64,000 nt of DNA from Bryobacterales bacterium (GCA_963422375.2 OY729428.2:1248001-1312000); one strand, 5' to 3'. Shown: positions 18,794 to 26,856, counted from the stretch's first letter. Notes: a model not told the origin generated them from the sequence alone. Numbers and translations are program-made.

Positions 18794-19190
18794 CCGCGGG
18801 GCACGTCTCGCGCCTGCCCGGTCGACCGCCCCCGCGATCCCCTTTCTAGCTTAATGCACTCCCCTCCCGAAAAAGGGCCGGCGAGGCGCGGCAGTTCCAG
18901 TCCGCATCAGAACCGGCGCGGCCACCGGGACAGGCGCGACCGGAAGGATGCGCCGAATCGGCGGAAGATGATGCTATGCACGACCGCCCCTTCCCAGAGC
19001 AGTGCTTGGGCGACGAGCGCGGTTTCCTTCACGTGCCGTTCCCTGCCCAAGCCCAGGCCGGGGGGCTCGTGGGCCCTCGAGCGCTCGAAGGCCCGAATTA
19101 ACCGCAAGACCGAGTCGGGTGACGGCGCGCCCTCTTCCCGAGGGCGGGACGCTCCTGCGGGCGGCGAACGACACCGGTTGCGCGCTCCAC

Positions 19191-19221
19191 CTAGCCCGCA
19201 TTCGTGAATAATGCGGGCTAG
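19191..19221. mobile_element. IS-like footprint: 23-bp inverted-repeat core flanked by CTAG direct repeats
   Basis: ctag-cccgcattcgtgaataatgcggg-ctag; the ends resemble IS1380-family terminal IRs (from memory). Confidence 0.55.
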
Positions 19222-20827
19222 GGAGCCTCGACTTCCTGCACAAAGCACCCAGCCGCAGTGCTGCGCAGTTCCTGCCCCTGTTCATCGAGGAGGGCATCGA
19301 CCCAGGCCGAGTCACGGGCAAGGGCGAGCGCGCCTACGACGCCTACATGCCGAGCGAGTGCGACCTAGTGATCGCCAACCCGCCCTACACCCGCGCGGGC
19401 GGCCCGGGCACCGCCGAGAACACGGACTGGAACCCGATCTTCGGCTCGGCCTGTCGAAGGCGGACGCCAAGACCATGAAGGGCGCCTTGCGCCGTACATT
19501 GGACGGAACGCCCGCTAGCCTTTACGCGAGCCTGGGCTAGGCGTTCGCCGTCTTGGCCTGCGAACGCGTCAAAGCAGGGGGGCGCGTGGCCTTGGTTCTG
19601 CCTGCAACCGCCCTGACGGGCAGCCGCTGGGCCCGGTGCGCACGCTGCTGCTGGAGCGCTTCGACGTCGAGTGGGTCGTGGCCAGCCACGACAGCCGCAA
19701 CCGCCACGCCCGGAACGGACTGCCCGGACGGCGCTTCGTCACGTTCTCGGAATCGACGCGCATCGCCGAGACGCTGGTTGTGGCAACCAAGAGGGCCGGA
19801 GGGGCCCCGAAAGGGGCCGGATGGACGCGCTTCGTCAATCTCCGGCGGAATCCGGACAAGCCCATGGACGCCATGGTGATCACCCGGGCGCTTCTGGCGG
19901 AGGCCAGAGAGGGCGGAGACAAGGCCTCCGGGGTGGCGTTCGGAGACGTTCTATGGGGCGAATTGCTCCCGGTCAGGCAATGCGACCTGGAAGGGAGCCC
20001 TTGGATTTACGGAGCCTTTTGCCAGGGAAATCTCGTCAGGGTCGCGACGCGCCTCGCCAGCGAAGGTGTAGCGAAGGTGTATGGCGCATCGCGGAATGCG
20101 AAATCCGCATCCCGATCGCCCCGCCGGCCTCCTCGTGCGAACTAGGGCCGTACGAGATGCAGATCAAGAACCCCACCCAAGGGCTGTTCGATATCGTGGA
20201 CACCGACGATCCCTCTTGTACCGGCCACCCCGCTCTTCTGTGGCATCACGGCCACAAACGCATCGTGTCGCTCGCGGCTAAGGCCAACGCGAGACTTCGC
20301 GAGCGGCCCGGAATCGATCCGACCGCTCAGTCCGCAATGCTGGCGAAAGCGGGAAGATTGCAGCTTGCCCGCGAACTCGGCCATGCGCCTCAGCGCTTGG
20401 CAGCCGTGCTCACCGACGAAGCAATGCTCGGCGTGCGGTCGTGGATCACGCTCCGGCCCAAGCGGCCGGCTCCCGGCAAGGAGGAAGCCTTGTGCCTCTG
20501 GCTGAACAGCACGCCGGGCCTACTGCTGCGCATCCTCCGCTCGAATCGCCCCTATCTCGGGCGAAGCACCTTGCCGCAGGAAGTCGCTCGAGGGTTGCCC
20601 GTCATCGATGTCGACGCCTTGGCCTCGGCTCGGCTCGGGCGCACACCCTGTTCGACGATCTCATGCGCAAGCCGCTCCAAGGCTTCGCGGGGCTGGCGGA
20701 AGATCCCGTCCGCCGAGAGCTGGACCGAAGGCTGTTCGAGGAGGGCCTCGACTGCCGCGTGGGCAGCGAGATCGACCGGCTCGCCCAAGCATTGAATCGC
20801 GAACCGACGATCACGACCAGACACTGA
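19221..20827 (+). pseudogene. N6-adenine DNA methyltransferase (type IIG-like R-M) C-terminal remnant
   Basis: GSLDFL...CDLVIANPPYTRAGG (NPPY at 19377-19388), GGRVALVLP, FSESTRIAETLVVA; in-frame stop at 19538-19540 and frameshifts near 19450, 19635, 20090 and 20640. Confidence 0.8.
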
Positions 20828-21046
20828 CCGCCGGCATCCGAGAGACGCGCTAGGCAGCGGCCCATCGCGCCGACCCGATTCGGACTCTCCGTTGCGGGAC
20901 CTCCCCGCGCTGACCTTACCGCCCTGCAAGAGTCCGGCGAGGCAATTCCCGGGATTTCCGGCCGAGCCCAAGCGGGCCCGCGCGGCGACCGATTGCCTGC
21001 GGTTTCCGCGCGCCAGCCCGCTATCCGCTCCGGGGTCGGACCGACA

Positions 21047-21880
21047 TCAGGTCGAATTGTCGCTTCGGCGCAGGCGGATTTCGATGCGCCGACGCCCGGG
21101 CAAGTCCCCCGAGGTCGAGCCGTCTGAGATCGTACCGTTTCGCAGAACAATCTGCGCGCCCGAGAGAGGGATCAGACGGAATTCCCTCAACGCCTGCGAT
21201 TCGGAAAGGATCTGCGCGACCGCAGCCGCGCGCGCAAACCCGAGCCCGGCGTTGTCGGCCGCGACGAGCGCTGCATCTGGGTCCCCGTTAAGGAACGGAA
21301 GCAGCTCCTCGTCCAAGGTGCTCGCGGAAAATACGGGGCGCTCATCGGTGTGGCCGACGATCTCAACGGTGTACGTTCCGAAGCGAGCGCCGATCTTGAC
21401 AATCTCGGGAACGACCTGCGCATGGAGCAAATTCTCGAAATCCAACCTGACCTCGCTCGAATTCGTCTCGAAGGAGTACCCGTCGGCTTCGTCGAGACGA
21501 ATGATCGGCGGCCACTGGTGACCGTCGGGAGGATCTTCGCCACCCAGCGCGTCCTCGATCTGGTCTTCCAAGCCCTCGATCACCCGGTCCTGGTCCGATA
21601 CCTTGGCAAGCGCCGAGTCGAGCTGCCGTTGCAGGCTCGCCATGTCTTGCGGCGTGGGGTTCGGCTTGACGGGCGATTGCGATTCCGGCGGGGTCTCGTC
21701 TTCCGGGGGCGGTGCCGCCTGGGACGGCATGACGCTGCTGACATAGGCCAAGAGGAGGAGCAAGATCAGGAAGGTCACGACCAGCATGATCTCGAGGGCG
21801 CTGGCACCGAACGCCTGGGCGTTGCGCTGGACCCTCTTCACCGTGACTGCGTAGGAGCTGGGATGCCTGTCGAAGCCCAT
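21047..21880 (-). CDS. MotB/ZorB-like protein: single TM, Pro-rich and coiled-coil linker, OmpA-like peptidoglycan-binding domain
   Basis: TM ALEIMLVVTFLILLLLLAYV; IVGHTDERP; NAGLGFARAAAV; RRRIEIRL; RBS gggagga. Confidence 0.88.
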   Translation of the reverse strand: MGFDRHPSSYAVTVKRVQRNAQAFGASALEIMLVVTFLILLLLLAYVSSVMPSQAAPPPEDETPPESQSPVKPNPTPQDMASLQRQLDSALAKVSDQDRVIEGLEDQIEDALGGEDPPDGHQWPPIIRLDEADGYSFETNSSEVRLDFENLLHAQVVPEIVKIGARFGTYTVEIVGHTDERPVFSASTLDEELLPFLNGDPDAALVAADNAGLGFARAAAVAQILSESQALREFRLIPLSGAQIVLRNGTISDGSTSGDLPGRRRIEIRLRRSDNST

Positions 21881-21962
21881 GGCGGCCTATTCCTCCCGAT
21901 TCAGTCGCCGCGCTCGGAGGCCCGGCACGGCCGATTCCTGTCCGCCGAGACCGGCTGAGCCA

Positions 21963-22955
21963 TCAGAACAGAAATGTGAACAGGGCAACCGCCAGCCAGA
22001 GCGCGACCATCGCGGAGGCCGCCAGCGCCAACGACGCCAAGACCCAAGAGACGCCCCTGAAGAGCCTTCCGCCGGCGCGTTCGGCATCCTGTCTCAGGGA
22101 CGGAGTCGAGAATCTCGAGAGAGCCTGCGAGACGCTCTGCGACGCCAGCCCCTGGGCTCGCGTCGCGTCCGCTTGGGCCGTGGCGGTCTGCTCGATCTTC
22201 GTCGCGACCCGCTCGAGGCTCTCGATCGCCTGCCTGAACCGATCTTCGTCGTCCGCCACCAGTCCCGGCAGCGTCTCGACGAAGGCCTGCAGGGACTGCG
22301 CCGCGACCTTGAGCTCGGTCGCGGCACTCTGGATGCCCGCGCTCCCGAACGTCCTCTCGAGCGACTCGCTGTAGCTCACGAAGCCGTGTTCGAGTTCGCC
22401 TGCCTTTTGCCTGACGACGTCTAGCAGCCCTGCGAGGTGGTCCGTAGTCAGGTTCGCCTGCTCCCGTAGCTTCGCGGCGGCTTGGTGGAGCTGGTCGCGC
22501 ACGTCCTCGTAGGTCGAGTCGATGTCGACGACCGCGCCCTGCGACATGACGACGCGCAAGCAAAGTCCGACGATCGTCGTCCAGAGAGCCGTGCCGAAGG
22601 CCGGCAGGAACGAAATCACGACGTTCGAGACGGACGGCGCGTCCTCCCCCTGCAATTCGAGGCCGATCACGGTGAGACCGGCTGCCAGCGAGGTCGTGGT
22701 GAACAGGAAACCCATGTAGTAGAGGCTCTCGCCGGTCTCCTCCATCGACAGCCTCAGCGTGTCTAGGCAATATCCGCGATACCCGAACATCACGGCAGTC
22801 AGCAGGACGGGAACCAAGAACAGCCGGACGAGGATGTTGTCGATTTCGATCAGGCCGACGATCATCGAAAGCGCGAACGCCACGCCGACGATCACGAGGA
22901 AAACCAGCGTGTGCTCCTTCGCTGGGTCGCGCCCGGCATCCCTACCACTCGCCAA
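21963..22955 (-). CDS. MotA/TolQ/ExbB (ZorA-like) membrane protein with helical tail
   Basis: YYMGFLFTTTSL and PAFGTALWTTIVGL match the two conserved MotA/ExbB channel helices; then an Ala/Gln/Glu-rich helical tail and a terminal hydrophobic helix. Confidence 0.75.
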   Translation of the reverse strand: MASGRDAGRDPAKEHTLVFLVIVGVAFALSMIVGLIEIDNILVRLFLVPVLLTAVMFGYRGYCLDTLRLSMEETGESLYYMGFLFTTTSLAAGLTVIGLELQGEDAPSVSNVVISFLPAFGTALWTTIVGLCLRVVMSQGAVVDIDSTYEDVRDQLHQAAAKLREQANLTTDHLAGLLDVVRQKAGELEHGFVSYSESLERTFGSAGIQSAATELKVAAQSLQAFVETLPGLVADDEDRFRQAIESLERVATKIEQTATAQADATRAQGLASQSVSQALSRFSTPSLRQDAERAGGRLFRGVSWVLASLALAASAMVALWLAVALFTFLF

Positions 22956-23835
22956 CAGGAACCACCTCTTCCACGGTCGCGTTCTGCGAGTCGAAGAACT
23001 CCTCCCACCACTGGGTGTGCTCCGGTCCCTGTATGTCGGGGATCAGGGCGTACTCCATGCGATTCAGGAGCAGCCGCACCGCGGAGCCGCGGAAGTCGAA
23101 TCGCATCCCCCCGGAGTCGGCGAAGTCCTCGAACTCCCCGAGGCGCATCGACGGGCCCAGGTCGCCGAACGAGACCGGGACTCGCCCGGGAGTCGCGAAG
23201 TTTTGCGGCACGACGAAGTCGGACAGAACCGTCAGCGACTTCGAGGCGTGCTCGAATTCGGGGTTGCCGAGAACCAGCCGCGCCACCCCGCCGAGCGAGT
23301 CCACCAAGCTGTAGCGGTAGTCGGGACTCCAGCCCGACAGGTCCTCGACGATCTGGCGGAACGGATTGAGGAACAGTTCCCGGTACCGCTGCTCCGCGAG
23401 GCGCGGGTTGCCCGTCAGGGAGCTCACGCCCGAGCCGTCGCCGGGATTGCAGAACCTCGCCACGGGCTCGAATCGCGCGCCCGTGTCGTAGTTGACTTCG
23501 TAGATCTCGATCAAGGCACTCTTCGGCAGCGTGCCCAAGGTCCTTTCGATCTCCCTGCGGACCTGCCGAATCGTGTTGGGCGATTCCGGGACGAATTGCT
23601 TCGTCACGTAGTCGACGCGCCGGTTGCGCTCGAACAGCAGCACCTCGAGGTGAGGGATGTAGCGGGTGTTCTGCGGGCAGAGGGTCGCTTCGTCGAACGG
23701 AACGACCTGCGGACTTGTCAAGTAAATGTAGCCGAAAAAGGCCGCGCAGAGCAGCACGCAGCCCGCCATCACCCAAGTCGAGGTCCGCTCCCCCCCGGAC
23801 CGGCGAGACCGCCTTCTCCGCCTTGATCGCGCCAC
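22942..23835 (-). CDS. Membrane-anchored hypothetical protein (possibly degenerate vWA-like alpha/beta fold)
   Basis: GTG start after gggaggga; Arg-rich N-terminus, one TM, then TLCP...FCNPGDG...LTGNP and LTVLSDF; overlaps the next gene. Confidence 0.75.
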   Translation of the reverse strand: MARSRRRRRSRRSGGERTSTWVMAGCVLLCAAFFGYIYLTSPQVVPFDEATLCPQNTRYIPHLEVLLFERNRRVDYVTKQFVPESPNTIRQVRREIERTLGTLPKSALIEIYEVNYDTGARFEPVARFCNPGDGSGVSSLTGNPRLAEQRYRELFLNPFRQIVEDLSGWSPDYRYSLVDSLGGVARLVLGNPEFEHASKSLTVLSDFVVPQNFATPGRVPVSFGDLGPSMRLGEFEDFADSGGMRFDFRGSAVRLLLNRMEYALIPDIQGPEHTQWWEEFFDSQNATVEEVVPVGEW

Positions 23836-23852
23836 GCCGCTTCCCTCCCGGG

Positions 23853-25157
23853 TCAGAGACCCCGCTGCGACCCCTTGTAGGCAGCCAGGACCTCTCCGCA
23901 CTGCTGGGCGAGCTTGTCCCGGCTCACCCGGGCGAATTCGGCAACGACCTCCGGATCCAAGTGTTCCTCAACCGGCGGCGCGTCCGCCGCCGGCGCCTCG
24001 GGGACGACTACCGGTTCCTCTTCCGGGCAATGCACCGCCTGGACGTATTCGATCTTGGAATGAGCCTTCCGGCGCTCGCTGCGATGCTTGGCGTCCAGTT
24101 CGCGCAAGCGGCTCAGCATCGTCTCGGCGTTCGACAAGGCCGTCCTGTACTGGCTCACGTACGCGTCGATTCCGCGAATGCCGTCGTTCTGCAGCTCGGT
24201 CACCGCCTCCACGGCATCCTCGTACTGTCCCTGGTACTCCTCCTGGGACTTGGCGAGGGCCCTGGCTCGCCGGCTGTACCCCGGGTAGGGGTCCTCGCTG
24301 GTGTAGCCCTTCCACGCCCCGAGGCCGGCCGACATCATTCCCATTCCGAAGAGCATCCACGACATGAAGTCGGACACTCCGAAGTAGTCGGCGGAGAAGG
24401 CGTCCCAAGCGCGCCGCCCCGCATCCATCACCTGGTTGTAGCCTTCGCTGGACAGGAGCGCCTCGCGGTAGTGCGCCACCAGCAGATTGAACAGGACAAG
24501 GATCACGGCACCGAAGAAGATGCTGGCGAACCCGAGGCTCTTGGAGGACCAAGAGCGGGCGTTGACCAGGCGCGCCGCGTTGCCCACGCAGAAGGCGCCG
24601 CCGACGTTGATCAGCGCGATCCCCGCGGCAACGCTCCAGCCCTGCAGCAGCCCTCCTTGGGCACCGATCGCGAGCAGGCTCCCGTTGAGCGCGGTCTCGG
24701 CGATCGCCGCGAGCACCGCGATCAGCGCGTGGCGCAGCTTGCTCTCCGGGTAGTGAGGCTCGTGGCCGATGTCGTTTTCCTTGCGGTAGCGCTCGTAGTC
24801 CCCTAGCCGCGCGGTGCATTCCCTGCGCAAAGCGGCGAGCTCGGCGCCGTCCTGCTCCTTGAGGCTCGCGAGCTCGTTCAGCGATTCCGCGAGGCCCCCT
24901 TCGATTTCGGGCCGCACGTCGCGCACCTTCATCCGGTCAAGGTACGCCGAACGCTGGCGCGAGCAGTAGTCTTCCAAGTCGTGGAGATGGAGCTCGGCCG
25001 ATTCCTTGAGCGCCGCGCGCACGATCTTCGTCTCGGCAGACGGATCCGGGGACCCCAGCCTGCCTAGTTTCGCGCCGAGCAGCTCAACGTCCAGCTCCGG
25101 CCAGCCCCCGGCCTCAAGGGAAGTATCGGGGCCGGGCTCCTTGATTCTCCTCAGCAA
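23853..25157 (-). CDS. Multi-pass membrane protein with N- and C-terminal coiled coils
   Basis: About four hydrophobic segments between helical regions; ETALNG, NLLVAHYRE, EDPYPGY; TATACT upstream on the minus strand. Confidence 0.8.
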   Translation of the reverse strand: MLRRIKEPGPDTSLEAGGWPELDVELLGAKLGRLGSPDPSAETKIVRAALKESAELHLHDLEDYCSRQRSAYLDRMKVRDVRPEIEGGLAESLNELASLKEQDGAELAALRRECTARLGDYERYRKENDIGHEPHYPESKLRHALIAVLAAIAETALNGSLLAIGAQGGLLQGWSVAAGIALINVGGAFCVGNAARLVNARSWSSKSLGFASIFFGAVILVLFNLLVAHYREALLSSEGYNQVMDAGRRAWDAFSADYFGVSDFMSWMLFGMGMMSAGLGAWKGYTSEDPYPGYSRRARALAKSQEEYQGQYEDAVEAVTELQNDGIRGIDAYVSQYRTALSNAETMLSRLRELDAKHRSERRKAHSKIEYVQAVHCPEEEPVVVPEAPAADAPPVEEHLDPEVVAEFARVSRDKLAQQCGEVLAAYKGSQRGL

Positions 25158-25278
25158 CCGGGCCGCTCCGCTAGGGATAGACGAAGTATAGCGAAGACTC
25201 GGTTTCCTAGCGTCGCGAGCGGGCCGGGGCAGAGGCCGGGCCTTCGCTATAGCGGGTTAGGTGGCCGTCGACGAGCGG

Positions 25279-26856
25279 CTAGGCCGCCGCGCCCTCCACG
25301 AGCCGCCGGGTAAAGTCCCGCATCCTGCGGTCCATGTCCGCCACTCTGTCGGGCTCGCGCTCCGCGAGATTGCTCTGCTCGGTCGGATCCGCGCGCAGGT
25401 CGTAGAGCTCCGGGCCCTCCTTCGTGATAGCACTGAACTCCCGCTCGCGTGCCCCGGAGTTCTCAACGAACCAGTGGTAGCTCCACTCGTCGTGCCGGAT
25501 GGAGACGCTCTGGTTGTAGTGGCAGCACACGGCTGCGTCGCGGATGCGCTCCTCCTGCCCGCGAATCAGCGGCATCAGGCTCCGGGACGTCATATGGGAC
25601 GGCCGGTCGATGCCGAGCCAGTCGAGAATCGTGGCCGTCACGTCCGTTTGCTGAGTGTAGGAGTCGACCCTCGCAACGCCGTCGCCGGACGGGTCCCGGA
25701 TCATCAGGAGCGTGCGCGCCAGCTCCTCGTATCCCCACGCGCGGGCCTTGCGGACGATGCCGTGGTCGCCGAAGGGCTCGCCGTGATCGGTCATTACGAC
25801 AAGCAGCGTGTCATCGTACATGCCCATCCGCCTGACCTCGTCCAGGAAGTGACCGACCCAAGCGTCCACGAAGCGGACGACCGCGCCGTAGAGCGAGAGC
25901 ACCTGGCGCAATTCCGTCTGGTCCAGGTAGCCCATCGTGTCGCCGGGTACCGGGCAGATGTTGCGCACGGCCCAGCTCGCGAAGTCGGGATCGACGAGCT
26001 TGAGATAGCTCTCCGGCGGGTCCCAAGGCTCGTGCGGGCAGAAGCTGTCGATCCAGAGGAACAGGTTCTCCTTGCGGGGCTGTGCTGCAAGCCAATCGAG
26101 ACCCGCCTGCAGGACCCGGGGGGTGAAGTGGTCCTCGTCGGCCTTCCACGCGTGGCGGTTGGCTAGGTAGGTCCGCGTTTCCCTTGCCTCGTCCGGCCGG
26201 ACTCCTCGCGGCTTGAAGAACGGGGCGACGTCGACGGCGGAGACGATCGCGGGATCGCGCACGTAGGGGTCCTGCTCCTGGCCGCGAATCCACTTGACGT
26301 CGTCGAAGCCCCGGGAGAAGCCGTACGAAGGCTTGTGGAGGTGGTAGGTGTCGCTGACCAGGGACGTGCGGAAGCCCTCGCTCCAGAGGATCTCGGGCAG
26401 CAGGGGATGGTCCTCCGGGTACAGCACCTGCCAGCGCCGGAACGGATAGGTGAACCTGCCCGTCAGCAGGCTGGTGCGGACCGGCACCGTCGGCAGGCCC
26501 TCCGGGTAGGAGTGCGAGAAGAAGGTGGACTCGGCGGCGAACCTGTCGAGATTCGGGGTGGGCACCCTGGAGCTGCCGAAGGCCCCGAGATGGTCCCAGC
26601 GAAAGCTGTCCAGCATCAGGACGATGACGTTCCTGCCGTTCCACTGCTTGCGGGTGGCAGGCCCCCAGGTCGGAGGCGAGAAGACTCGCTCCCGGCCCTT
26701 CAGGGTGTATGCCGCGTGATCGAAATCGGAGACCGGCGCGGGAGCTGTCGTGTCGCCGTCATCGCCGCAGCCCCACAGAGCGGGCGATGCCGCCAGCAGG
26801 GAAGCGGCGGAACTCTTGGCGAACTGGCGGCGGCTCGCCTGCGGCACGTCGGTCAT
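25279..26856 (-). CDS. Sulfatase-like hydrolase (alkaline phosphatase superfamily), predicted Tat lipoprotein
   Basis: SRRQF Tat motif, LWGC lipobox, LMLDSFRWDH, PTVPVRTSLLTG, PHEPWDPP, TDHGE, ELYDLRADPTE. Confidence 0.9.
   Translation of the reverse strand: MTDVPQASRRQFAKSSAASLLAASPALWGCGDDGDTTAPAPVSDFDHAAYTLKGRERVFSPPTWGPATRKQWNGRNVIVLMLDSFRWDHLGAFGSSRVPTPNLDRFAAESTFFSHSYPEGLPTVPVRTSLLTGRFTYPFRRWQVLYPEDHPLLPEILWSEGFRTSLVSDTYHLHKPSYGFSRGFDDVKWIRGQEQDPYVRDPAIVSAVDVAPFFKPRGVRPDEARETRTYLANRHAWKADEDHFTPRVLQAGLDWLAAQPRKENLFLWIDSFCPHEPWDPPESYLKLVDPDFASWAVRNICPVPGDTMGYLDQTELRQVLSLYGAVVRFVDAWVGHFLDEVRRMGMYDDTLLVVMTDHGEPFGDHGIVRKARAWGYEELARTLLMIRDPSGDGVARVDSYTQQTDVTATILDWLGIDRPSHMTSRSLMPLIRGQEERIRDAAVCCHYNQSVSIRHDEWSYHWFVENSGAREREFSAITKEGPELYDLRADPTEQSNLAEREPDRVADMDRRMRDFTRRLVEGAAA

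Follow-up and report, generated by a model that had tools for sequence, protein, structure and literature searches.

The question raised by the locus studied here is what kind of machine is built from four membrane proteins that a Bryobacterales bacterium encodes side by side, and whether this machine serves defence. The locus, hereafter the cassette, lies at positions 21,047 to 25,157 of the window, i.e., of the whole 64,000-nucleotide (nt) stretch of DNA that was analysed, and consists of four open, tightly packed open reading frames (ORFs), all on the minus strand (Table 1). From the sequence alone it had been read as a Zorya-like MotA/MotB operon of four intact, co-oriented genes, and indeed all four ORFs are open and the motifs quoted in that reading are found in the translations. 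Our analysis points to a motor-like pair (genes 3 and 4) whose B subunit carries glutamate instead of aspartate, a VWA-fold protein (gene 2) and its likely membrane partner (gene 1). The cassette recurs in several phyla, often next to a gene for a predicted exported nuclease.

Conservation of the cassette and its putative motor pair

Altogether, 64 distinct loci including the window were gathered from congeners, other genomes of the phylum, six of 24 plasmid records and a pattern scan of species genomes. One duplicate locus, L047 (which lacks gene 2) and three weak SNase-profile matches were left out of the counts, two of these matches being without a Pfam SNase match at E ≥ 2e-6 and one having the C-terminal domain only. 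Gene 2 was present in 63 of the 64 loci and all four genes in 55, and order and strand were identical in every one of the 55. The four-gene order is thus conserved across genomes of several phyla and on plasmids, and together with the codon-position conservation seen in all four genes this sets the cassette above a chance arrangement. Two of the remaining eight loci (L054 and L076) are ended by the contig, while six (L045, L046, L050, L053, L056, and L089; 6/63) hold genes 1 and 2 with no adjoining motor genes.

The gene 2 profile collected 795 clusters at 50% identity (E ≤ 0.001), nearly all of them annotated as hypothetical. Taxa with the cassette include Alpha-, Beta-, and Gammaproteobacteria, Acidobacteriota, Nitrospirales, Latescibacterota, and others, and 9 of 31 congeners carry the gene 2 family, as several subtypes that are about 20% identical. 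The family was also found on 24 plasmid records, the cassette being complete in all six that were read; complete cassettes, with and without a nuclease, reside on plasmids of culturable soil bacteria, e.g., Rhizobium johnstonii 3841 pRL11. In five genomes of one genus the cassette occupies a single shared locus. Phage records gave no match to the cassette, and no viral contig carried a window protein; a search with the family alignment returned one viral contig (L110, IMG/VR) with a complete cassette and an SNase gene, adjoining resolvase and umuDC-like genes.

Gene 3 encodes four N-terminal transmembrane (TM) helices, a helical tail of about 165 residues and an extra C-terminal TM helix at residues 305-323. 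Residues 11-168 (158 residues) were modelled as a four-helix unit (pLDDT 89.5) with a short loop of about 15-20 residues between helices 2 and 3. Foldseek ranks 1-10 for this core were all PomA/ExbB/TolQ chains with weak E-values of 0.2-0.4 (0.2-0.7 for the fold matches overall). By VIA, the best natural match was ZorA 8qyd (Z 8.8, 124 aligned, root-mean-square deviation (rmsd) 3.5), and ZorA 8vvi gave Z 8.5 (96/99 aligned, rmsd 2.7); these matches cover ZorA types I and II, a Z below 9 being within the chance range of the tool for a helical bundle. The gene 3 profile had 8vvn as its top match in the PDB (E 0.26), with the L-G-x-x-x-T and A-x-x-T-x-x-x-G motifs aligned, and the PADLOC ZorA matches were weak as well (E 8e-5 to 3e-3). 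Foldseek, VIA and the PDB profile therefore concur, each weakly, with the MotA/ExbB-like character proposed earlier, and we regard gene 3 as a MotA/ExbB/ZorA-like A subunit on weak but consistent evidence. Residues G82, T86, S89, A123, T127, G130, and R134 are invariant (48 rows), and of these T86, S89, and T127 are consistent with the ring of Ser/Thr residues that two reports give for ZorAB (PMC11890865, PMC11946911). The tail measures 46-476 residues across 57 loci, its helicity being judged from sequence and from weak coiled-coil-type Pfam matches.

Gene 4 encodes one TM helix with Glu30, a linker, and an OmpA-like domain into which about 30 amino acids (aa) are inserted. G176-H-T-D179, R217, and R263-R265 are invariant (21 rows), and the domain profile matched MotS 9ljk (E 0.003) and PA0833 (E 0.02) in the PDB. 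The weak NCBIfam matches to TssL-long and MotB stayed under cut-off, and a single-sequence PDB search gave nothing useful. With its GHTD, R217, and RRIEI motifs invariant and its profile match to MotS, gene 4 is MotB-like, as had been read, with the addition that Glu replaces the canonical Asp. Glu occupies the ion-binding Asp position in all 56 B subunits seen, within a family TM motif, G-L-T-M-A-E, that we take to align with T-Y-A-D of MotB. One report shows the position of the MotB acidic residue via a Borrelia primer and states that Asp-to-Glu mutants of MotB retain a reduced motility, while Asn abolishes it (PMC6663468); a working Glu motor is therefore plausible. The OmpA-like domain is predicted to bind peptidoglycan. 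Judging from sequence and model, the products of genes 3 and 4 probably form a 5:2 complex, in which Glu30 would carry the ion against the T86/S89/T127 ring and the OmpA-like domain would clamp peptidoglycan like ZorB.

The B subunits of the 55 cassettes share their N-terminus and end in one of three periplasmic types: an OmpA-like domain with insert (22/55, window included), a two-Cys domain (31/55), or an ordinary OmpA/ZorB-type domain (2/55), an OmpA-like domain of either kind being found in 24/55. One of the two ordinary ones, in L014, matched ZorB2 with an E-value of 9.6e-30. The types are intermixed over the tree of genes 1-3, the deep nodes of which are weakly supported, and this mixing suggests repeated swaps. 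The two-Cys domain, of about 120 aa with invariant PPCW ... CRFFVRxFD, was seen in L049 and 30 other loci, and small stand-alone hypothetical proteins in Planctomycetota look alike. It matched no named family in the Atlas or in the PDB profile search. An ExbD-like identity was rejected, as hhalign returned 0.2% with 3 as well as with 24 ExbD sequences, no more than with controls (one locus of an unpublished genome was left out of this comparison), and a match to bleomycin hydrolase (E 0.007) was taken as chance.

The VWA protein, its likely membrane partner and the subtype of the window

The gene 2 product consists of an N-terminal basic stretch, one TM helix and an alpha/beta domain. Its AlphaFold2 model (pLDDT 93, pTM 0.90) retrieved VWA/I-domain proteins in Foldseek (E 2e-4 to 8e-3) and aligned with 4fx5 by VIA (Z 10.5, 158 aligned, rmsd 3.4). 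On this model the domain has a VWA fold, and it is predicted to sit in the periplasm. The sequence-only reading had described a single-TM protein with a Cys pair; both features are there, and the VWA fold is newly recognised. C31, C107, S183, and D184 are invariant (147 rows; 275-aa numbering), and the Cys pair would fit a periplasmic disulfide. The family shows a pattern like the metal ion-dependent adhesion site (MIDAS), D-x-T/S-D ... S-P ... S-D, whose DxT/SD motif was found in 58 of 63 loci. In the window protein, E47-R-N-R-R51 stands instead of the metal motif and S183-D184 alone is retained, so that it has the VWA fold but lacks the DxS/Tx...D signature of a MIDAS.

Gliding machines use TolQR-like motors and VWA adhesins, and by analogy the cassette could be an envelope machine that generates force, its motor pulling or moving the membrane-anchored VWA protein so that the cell can adhere, secrete or display proteins at its surface. 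The VWA fold would suit such a role, several cassette copies lie among housekeeping genes, and the non-OmpA periplasmic domain of 31/55 cassettes makes wall anchoring optional. On the other hand, no outer-membrane, TonB-like or secretion gene recurs among the neighbours and the spread is patchy and mobile, and we hold this explanation to be unlikely.

Gene 1 has TM helices at about residues 146-164, 173-191, 210-228, and 264-283, and a long coiled coil lies on either side of them, at the N- and at the C-terminus; three of the helices come from hydropathy and the fourth was judged by eye from alignments. The product is likely a four-TM membrane protein, predicted to begin and end with a coiled coil in the cytoplasm, while a conserved loop of 35 residues in its TM region would face the periplasm. 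N184, N224, R231, S266, and P292 are invariant (50 rows). No Pfam or NCBIfam model matched gene 1, and the PDB profile search gave coiled-coil noise, with no solved relative at E < 0.02. In L089, genes 1 and 2 make up one 885-aa fusion, and gene 1 likely encodes the membrane partner of the VWA protein. From this fusion and the motor-less pairs, it is quite likely that the two proteins form a membrane sub-complex, which would hold the VWA domain in the periplasm for trigger binding. Among the motor-less pairs, that of L045 precedes Excalibur and Endonuclease_NS genes, and in that of L046 the VWA partner is lipoprotein-like and a Csx3-domain gene precedes the pair. A gene 1-gene 2 pair with no motor genes was also seen at L113, where an ABC-3C system follows.

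In the cassette tree, the window groups with L009 on a long branch that is marked by linked changes. ERNRR replaces DxTD in all 18 gene 2 proteins of the subtype. The C-terminal YRxxN of gene 1, present in 53 of 59 loci, is missing from the window, from L009 and from six of six close homologues. The C-terminal TM helix of gene 3 occurs in two of 57 loci, these being the window and L009, and in seven of nine close homologues, the two without it being one short and one most distant. The N-terminus of the B subunit is altered, with Glu30 retained. Between the codons of the window and L009, identity at third positions (0.34-0.42) is lower than at second positions (0.62-0.77) in all four genes, which indicates purifying selection on each of them. 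The subtype thus looks like a maintained, nuclease-less form; no metagenome contig with it was found, and its neighbourhoods come from two genomes.

The opposite view would be that the Glu-type A/B pair is no working motor at all, being a passive scaffold or a gated leak, and that the window subtype is a dying, reduced form. It lacks the MIDAS-like motif, YRxxN and a nuclease, its branch is long, and L114, a congener cassette of another subtype, has a split gene 1 and an insertion sequence within gene 2, which shows that the cassette can decay. Yet the channel-lining Thr/Ser residues and Glu30 are kept, selection acts on all four genes, ERNRR is constant throughout the subtype and the new helix is shared by most close relatives, and we regard the loss of motor function as highly improbable.

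Linked nucleases, the defence reading and known systems

Clustering of 666 neighbour ORFs gave SNase as the single dominant family, recurring across many clades (Pfam check on six examples). An SNase gene is found in the fetched flanks of 29 of the 55 cassettes, within 1 kb in 24 of them, on either side and either strand; such a gene adjoins 18/22 OmpA-type and 11/31 Cys-type cassettes. In the 47 carrier genomes, searched whole, there were 66 SNase matches, and 25 adjacencies were observed against about 0.29 expected at random. In several of these genomes the cassette-adjacent gene is the sole SNase match, and the cassette tree shows the linkage in at least six distinct clades. A hydrophobic N-terminal segment is present in 29 of 30 linked SNases, whose C-terminal parts vary, and they are accordingly predicted to be exported. 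Nucleases of other, unrelated families take the SNase place at some loci, namely GmrSD_C/DUF1524 with Excalibur (L012 and L044) and Endonuclease_NS (L044 and L045). The description of the system as nuclease-free consequently holds for the host genome and fails for the family. As a separate observation, a GmrSD_C match lies elsewhere in the host genome (L121).

Exported nucleases would also suit nucleic-acid scavenging, in which outside DNA is digested and the motor energises a Ton-like uptake of the products. Three exported nuclease families are linked to the cassette, and the A subunit has ExbB/TolQ among its neighbours in structure. TonB-dependent receptors were near two scanned loci (L051 and L089), no nucleoside transporter recurs, and the window subtype is under purifying selection with no nuclease linked to it, all of which speaks against scavenging and makes it distinctly unlikely in our view.

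Restriction-modification (R-M), ABC-3C, Mrr, T5orf172, toxin-antitoxin and mobility genes lie near many loci, as judged by eye (examples in Table 1). The cassette might therefore be a selfish trait of mobile elements that acts on no phage and excludes rival DNA, by entry exclusion or a block of transformation, or aids the transfer of its own element. This agrees with TrbI/TrbL in L058, a type IV secretion system (T4SS) block in L082, resolvases or integrases at several loci, and the 24 plasmid records. It agrees poorly with the many chromosomal copies that have no mobility gene in the flanks read and with the genus that keeps a single locus in five genomes, and we consider it improbable, a little more so than scavenging.

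Our preferred reading, inferred from gene context and put tentatively at just short of an even chance, is that the cassette is powered by ions and defends the envelope against DNA brought in by phages or by conjugation. In most members a trigger would be bound via the MIDAS-like metal site of the VWA domain, while in the window subtype the basic ERNRR patch may bind an anionic ligand. Trigger binding would then turn on ion flow, the A-subunit tail would act on the cytoplasmic coiled coils of gene 1, and DNA crossing the envelope would be destroyed or blocked, by the exported nuclease where one is linked; these last three steps are the weakest. In the nuclease-less window subtype the output could be an ion leak or a local entry block. 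A more far-reaching version, which seems to us rather unlikely, has the cassette as a widespread new class of 5:2 ion motors with native glutamate, three swappable periplasmic domains and VWA-gated immunity in the periplasm, by which DNA would be destroyed or blocked ahead of its arrival in the cytoplasm, the window subtype having neither nuclease nor metal site, a tail re-anchored in the membrane and a purely mechanical or ion-leak output.

Several results weigh against an envelope defence. No SNase adjoins 26 of the 55 cassettes, and 11 of the 47 genomes are without any SNase match. The host genome has no match to SNase, Endonuclease_NS or Excalibur, and the same-subtype congener has none to SNase; a nuclease is thus no fixed part of the system. 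Mobile elements often carry SNases, and the linkage may therefore in part reflect a shared address. Nor is four-protein coupling obligatory, given the motor-less pairs. Several cassettes (L010, L057, L059, L063, and L068) lie in housekeeping surroundings, and the enrichment of defence genes is a by-eye judgement made with no control set. Loci were chosen through gene 2 only and include many related sphingomonads, i.e., they are phylogenetically clumped, and the counts are thus not independent events. Finally, none of the A-subunit matches is strong by itself (Foldseek E ≥ 0.2; VIA Z < 9; hhalign against ExbB/TolQ 13%).

Zorya is described in two reports as ZorA5-ZorB2 with ZorC/ZorD, ZorE, or ZorF/ZorG (PMC11946911, PMC11890865), which also give an Asp of the ZorB TM helix as essential (D26/D24/D21). 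The cassette shares with Zorya a putative MotA-like subunit whose C-terminus extends into a long helical tail and a single-TM OmpA-domain partner, the Thr/Ser ring residues, ZorA as best natural structural match, a patchy, island-type spread and, in one member (L014), a ZorB2-type domain. It differs in having Glu where Zorya has the essential Asp, in the four N-terminal TM helices of its A subunit with a fifth at the tail end in the window, in the lack of ZorC-G, and in two added membrane proteins, the 4-TM coiled-coil and the VWA protein. Moreover, its linked nucleases are predicted to be exported, whereas those of Zorya are cytoplasmic, the periplasmic domain is of a kind other than OmpA in over half of the family, and no curated Zorya cut-off is reached. 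No ZorC/ZorD, ZorE, or ZorF/ZorG gene adjoins the window cassette, which is flanked by a methyltransferase remnant and a sulfatase-fold gene, as the proposed absence of a known Zorya effector implied, and no such family recurs among the 666 neighbour ORFs. Zorya models gave no match to genes 1 and 2, either of the window or of 14 further cassettes. The four window proteins had no Pfam or NCBIfam match at cut-off and weak PADLOC matches, and no description of the cassette was found in the literature searched, which did not extend to subscription journals or bioRxiv supplements (candidate-system tables). As no library model matches at cut-off and no ZorC-G gene is adjacent, we conclude that the cassette is not Zorya I-III, nor did it match another described system.

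With MotAB/PomAB the cassette has in common the TM3/TM4-type motifs, T-x-x-acidic in the B helix and the OmpA-like domain (MotS being the top PDB match), but it has no torque domain between TM2 and TM3, its tail is long, and FliG_C has no match in the host genome (96% complete). The A core has ExbB and TolQ as Foldseek neighbours, and, as in ExbBD-TonB/TolQRA, a motor stands with extra membrane partners. In contrast to these, the cassette has no TonB/TolA-like partner or receptor, its B subunit in the window is OmpA-like with Glu, and the Cys-type domain has no ExbD profile match. ExbB/ExbD and TolQ/TolR genes are located elsewhere in the host genome, and PF02472 matches three other loci there, not the cassette. 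SNIPE is described as a membrane-bound anti-phage nuclease that cuts phage DNA at the envelope on entry (PMC13190303). It offers a precedent for envelope-level DNA cutting, no homology being claimed, and differs in being a single protein with neither motor nor VWA partner.

Motor families of the MotA/MotB type each power a separate job (flagella, Ton import, Tol, gliding, Zorya), and the cassette would be a further, large family. The Asp rule is broken in every member seen, which makes the family a natural test of motor ion binding, while the link to exported nucleases provides the testable idea of an immunity in the periplasm powered by ion flow. Cassettes on plasmids of culturable bacteria would allow simple knockouts and heterologous tests, and the window subtype reveals which parts co-vary when the nuclease is missing.

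Among the other neighbours, related radical-SAM genes, which presumably resemble genes of the His-Xaa-Ser system, lie at most 4 kb from the cassette in three distant genomes (L073, L080, and L087). In the host genome, L096 is a MotA/ExbB-family gene flanked by FHA-like genes.

Setting of the cassette in the window

For gene 2, the longest ORF is most likely not the one used. A GTG codon at the position given in Table 1 lies 18 nt past the stop of gene 1 with a GGGAGG-like site ahead of it, and near homologues (288-300 aa) open with M-A-R-x-R-R-R; the product from this start would have 297 aa (22942..23835). Genes 2 and 3 overlap by 14 nt, and genes 3 and 4 are separated by 82 nt. The GC content of the cassette (0.64-0.67; 0.80-0.88 at third codon positions, GC3) is similar to that of its flanks (0.65-0.69; GC3 0.84-0.90). 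The host genome has one cassette copy. Together with the broken methyltransferase gene, it is flanked by two synteny blocks; in relatives, G003 for example, these blocks are not linked to each other. Flanking repeats, promoter and terminator were sought around the cassette, and none was above chance. No RNA data set was listed among those carrying the cassette, and three short pieces from a run presumed to be RNA were left out of account.

Table 1. Positions of the features in the window and of loci and neighbouring genes mentioned in the text.
Feature	Location	Strand	Remark
Gene 1	23853..25157	-	434 aa
Gene 2	22942..23901 as longest ORF	-	likely start 23835
Gene 3	21963..22955	-	330 aa
Gene 4	21047..21880	-	277 aa
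Methyltransferase remnant	19218-20824	+	frameshifted 3' part
Palindromic repeat end	19190-19223		at the break of the remnant
DNA hairpin (predicted)	19180-19235		-18.5 kcal/mol
Sulfatase-fold gene	25279-26733	-	
Gene 1-gene 2 fusion	L089 8141-10798		
Motor-less pair	L045 9503-11997		
Motor-less pair	L046 2735-4548		
Pair with no motor genes	L113 8296-10414		
Two-Cys domain (example)	L049 12666-13019		
Cassette on viral contig	L110 8524-13842		
Disrupted congener cassette	L114 7321-13636		
MotA/ExbB-family gene	L096 (host genome C2 ~2791800-2793700)		
BsuBI/PstI R-M	L011		
Type I R-M	L083		
ABC-3C	L113		
Mrr	L074		
T5orf172	L052		
DUF4041	L016		
T4SS genes	L058, L082		TrbI/TrbL (L058), T4SS block (L082)

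The cassette was said to converge on an R-M methyltransferase remnant, and this is what was found. The remnant consists of five pieces in alternating frames, with four frame changes and the first ~360 codons missing. It is the 3' part of a large, type IIG/PglX-like N6-adenine methyltransferase with an NPPY motif. Its pieces align at 59-87% with residues 360-893 of an open stretch in a congener (893 aa), which in turn matches type II/IIG/PglX methyltransferase models. Positions 19194-25600 are identical and gap-free in contigs of two runs from two studies, one of these runs coming from a study of the possible source sample, and the frameshifts are therefore not a private assembly error. The wider claim that neighbouring accessory genes have decayed is borne out for this remnant, the sole neighbour checked. 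Open methyltransferase copies of 980-1040 codons were seen in many congeners, some of them in tandem, and the host genome has several further copies, whole and broken. The repeat end at the break has 25 matches in the genome (24 other places, by one half), most of them preceded by the same upstream sequence, a pattern that an insertion-sequence end would leave.

A flanking VWA gene passes the TIGR03436 cut-off, which makes an acidobacterium the likely host. The sulfatase-fold protein has a predicted export signal, falls below all NCBIfam cut-offs, and carries Thr (PTVPVR) where formylglycine sulfatases carry Cys/Ser.

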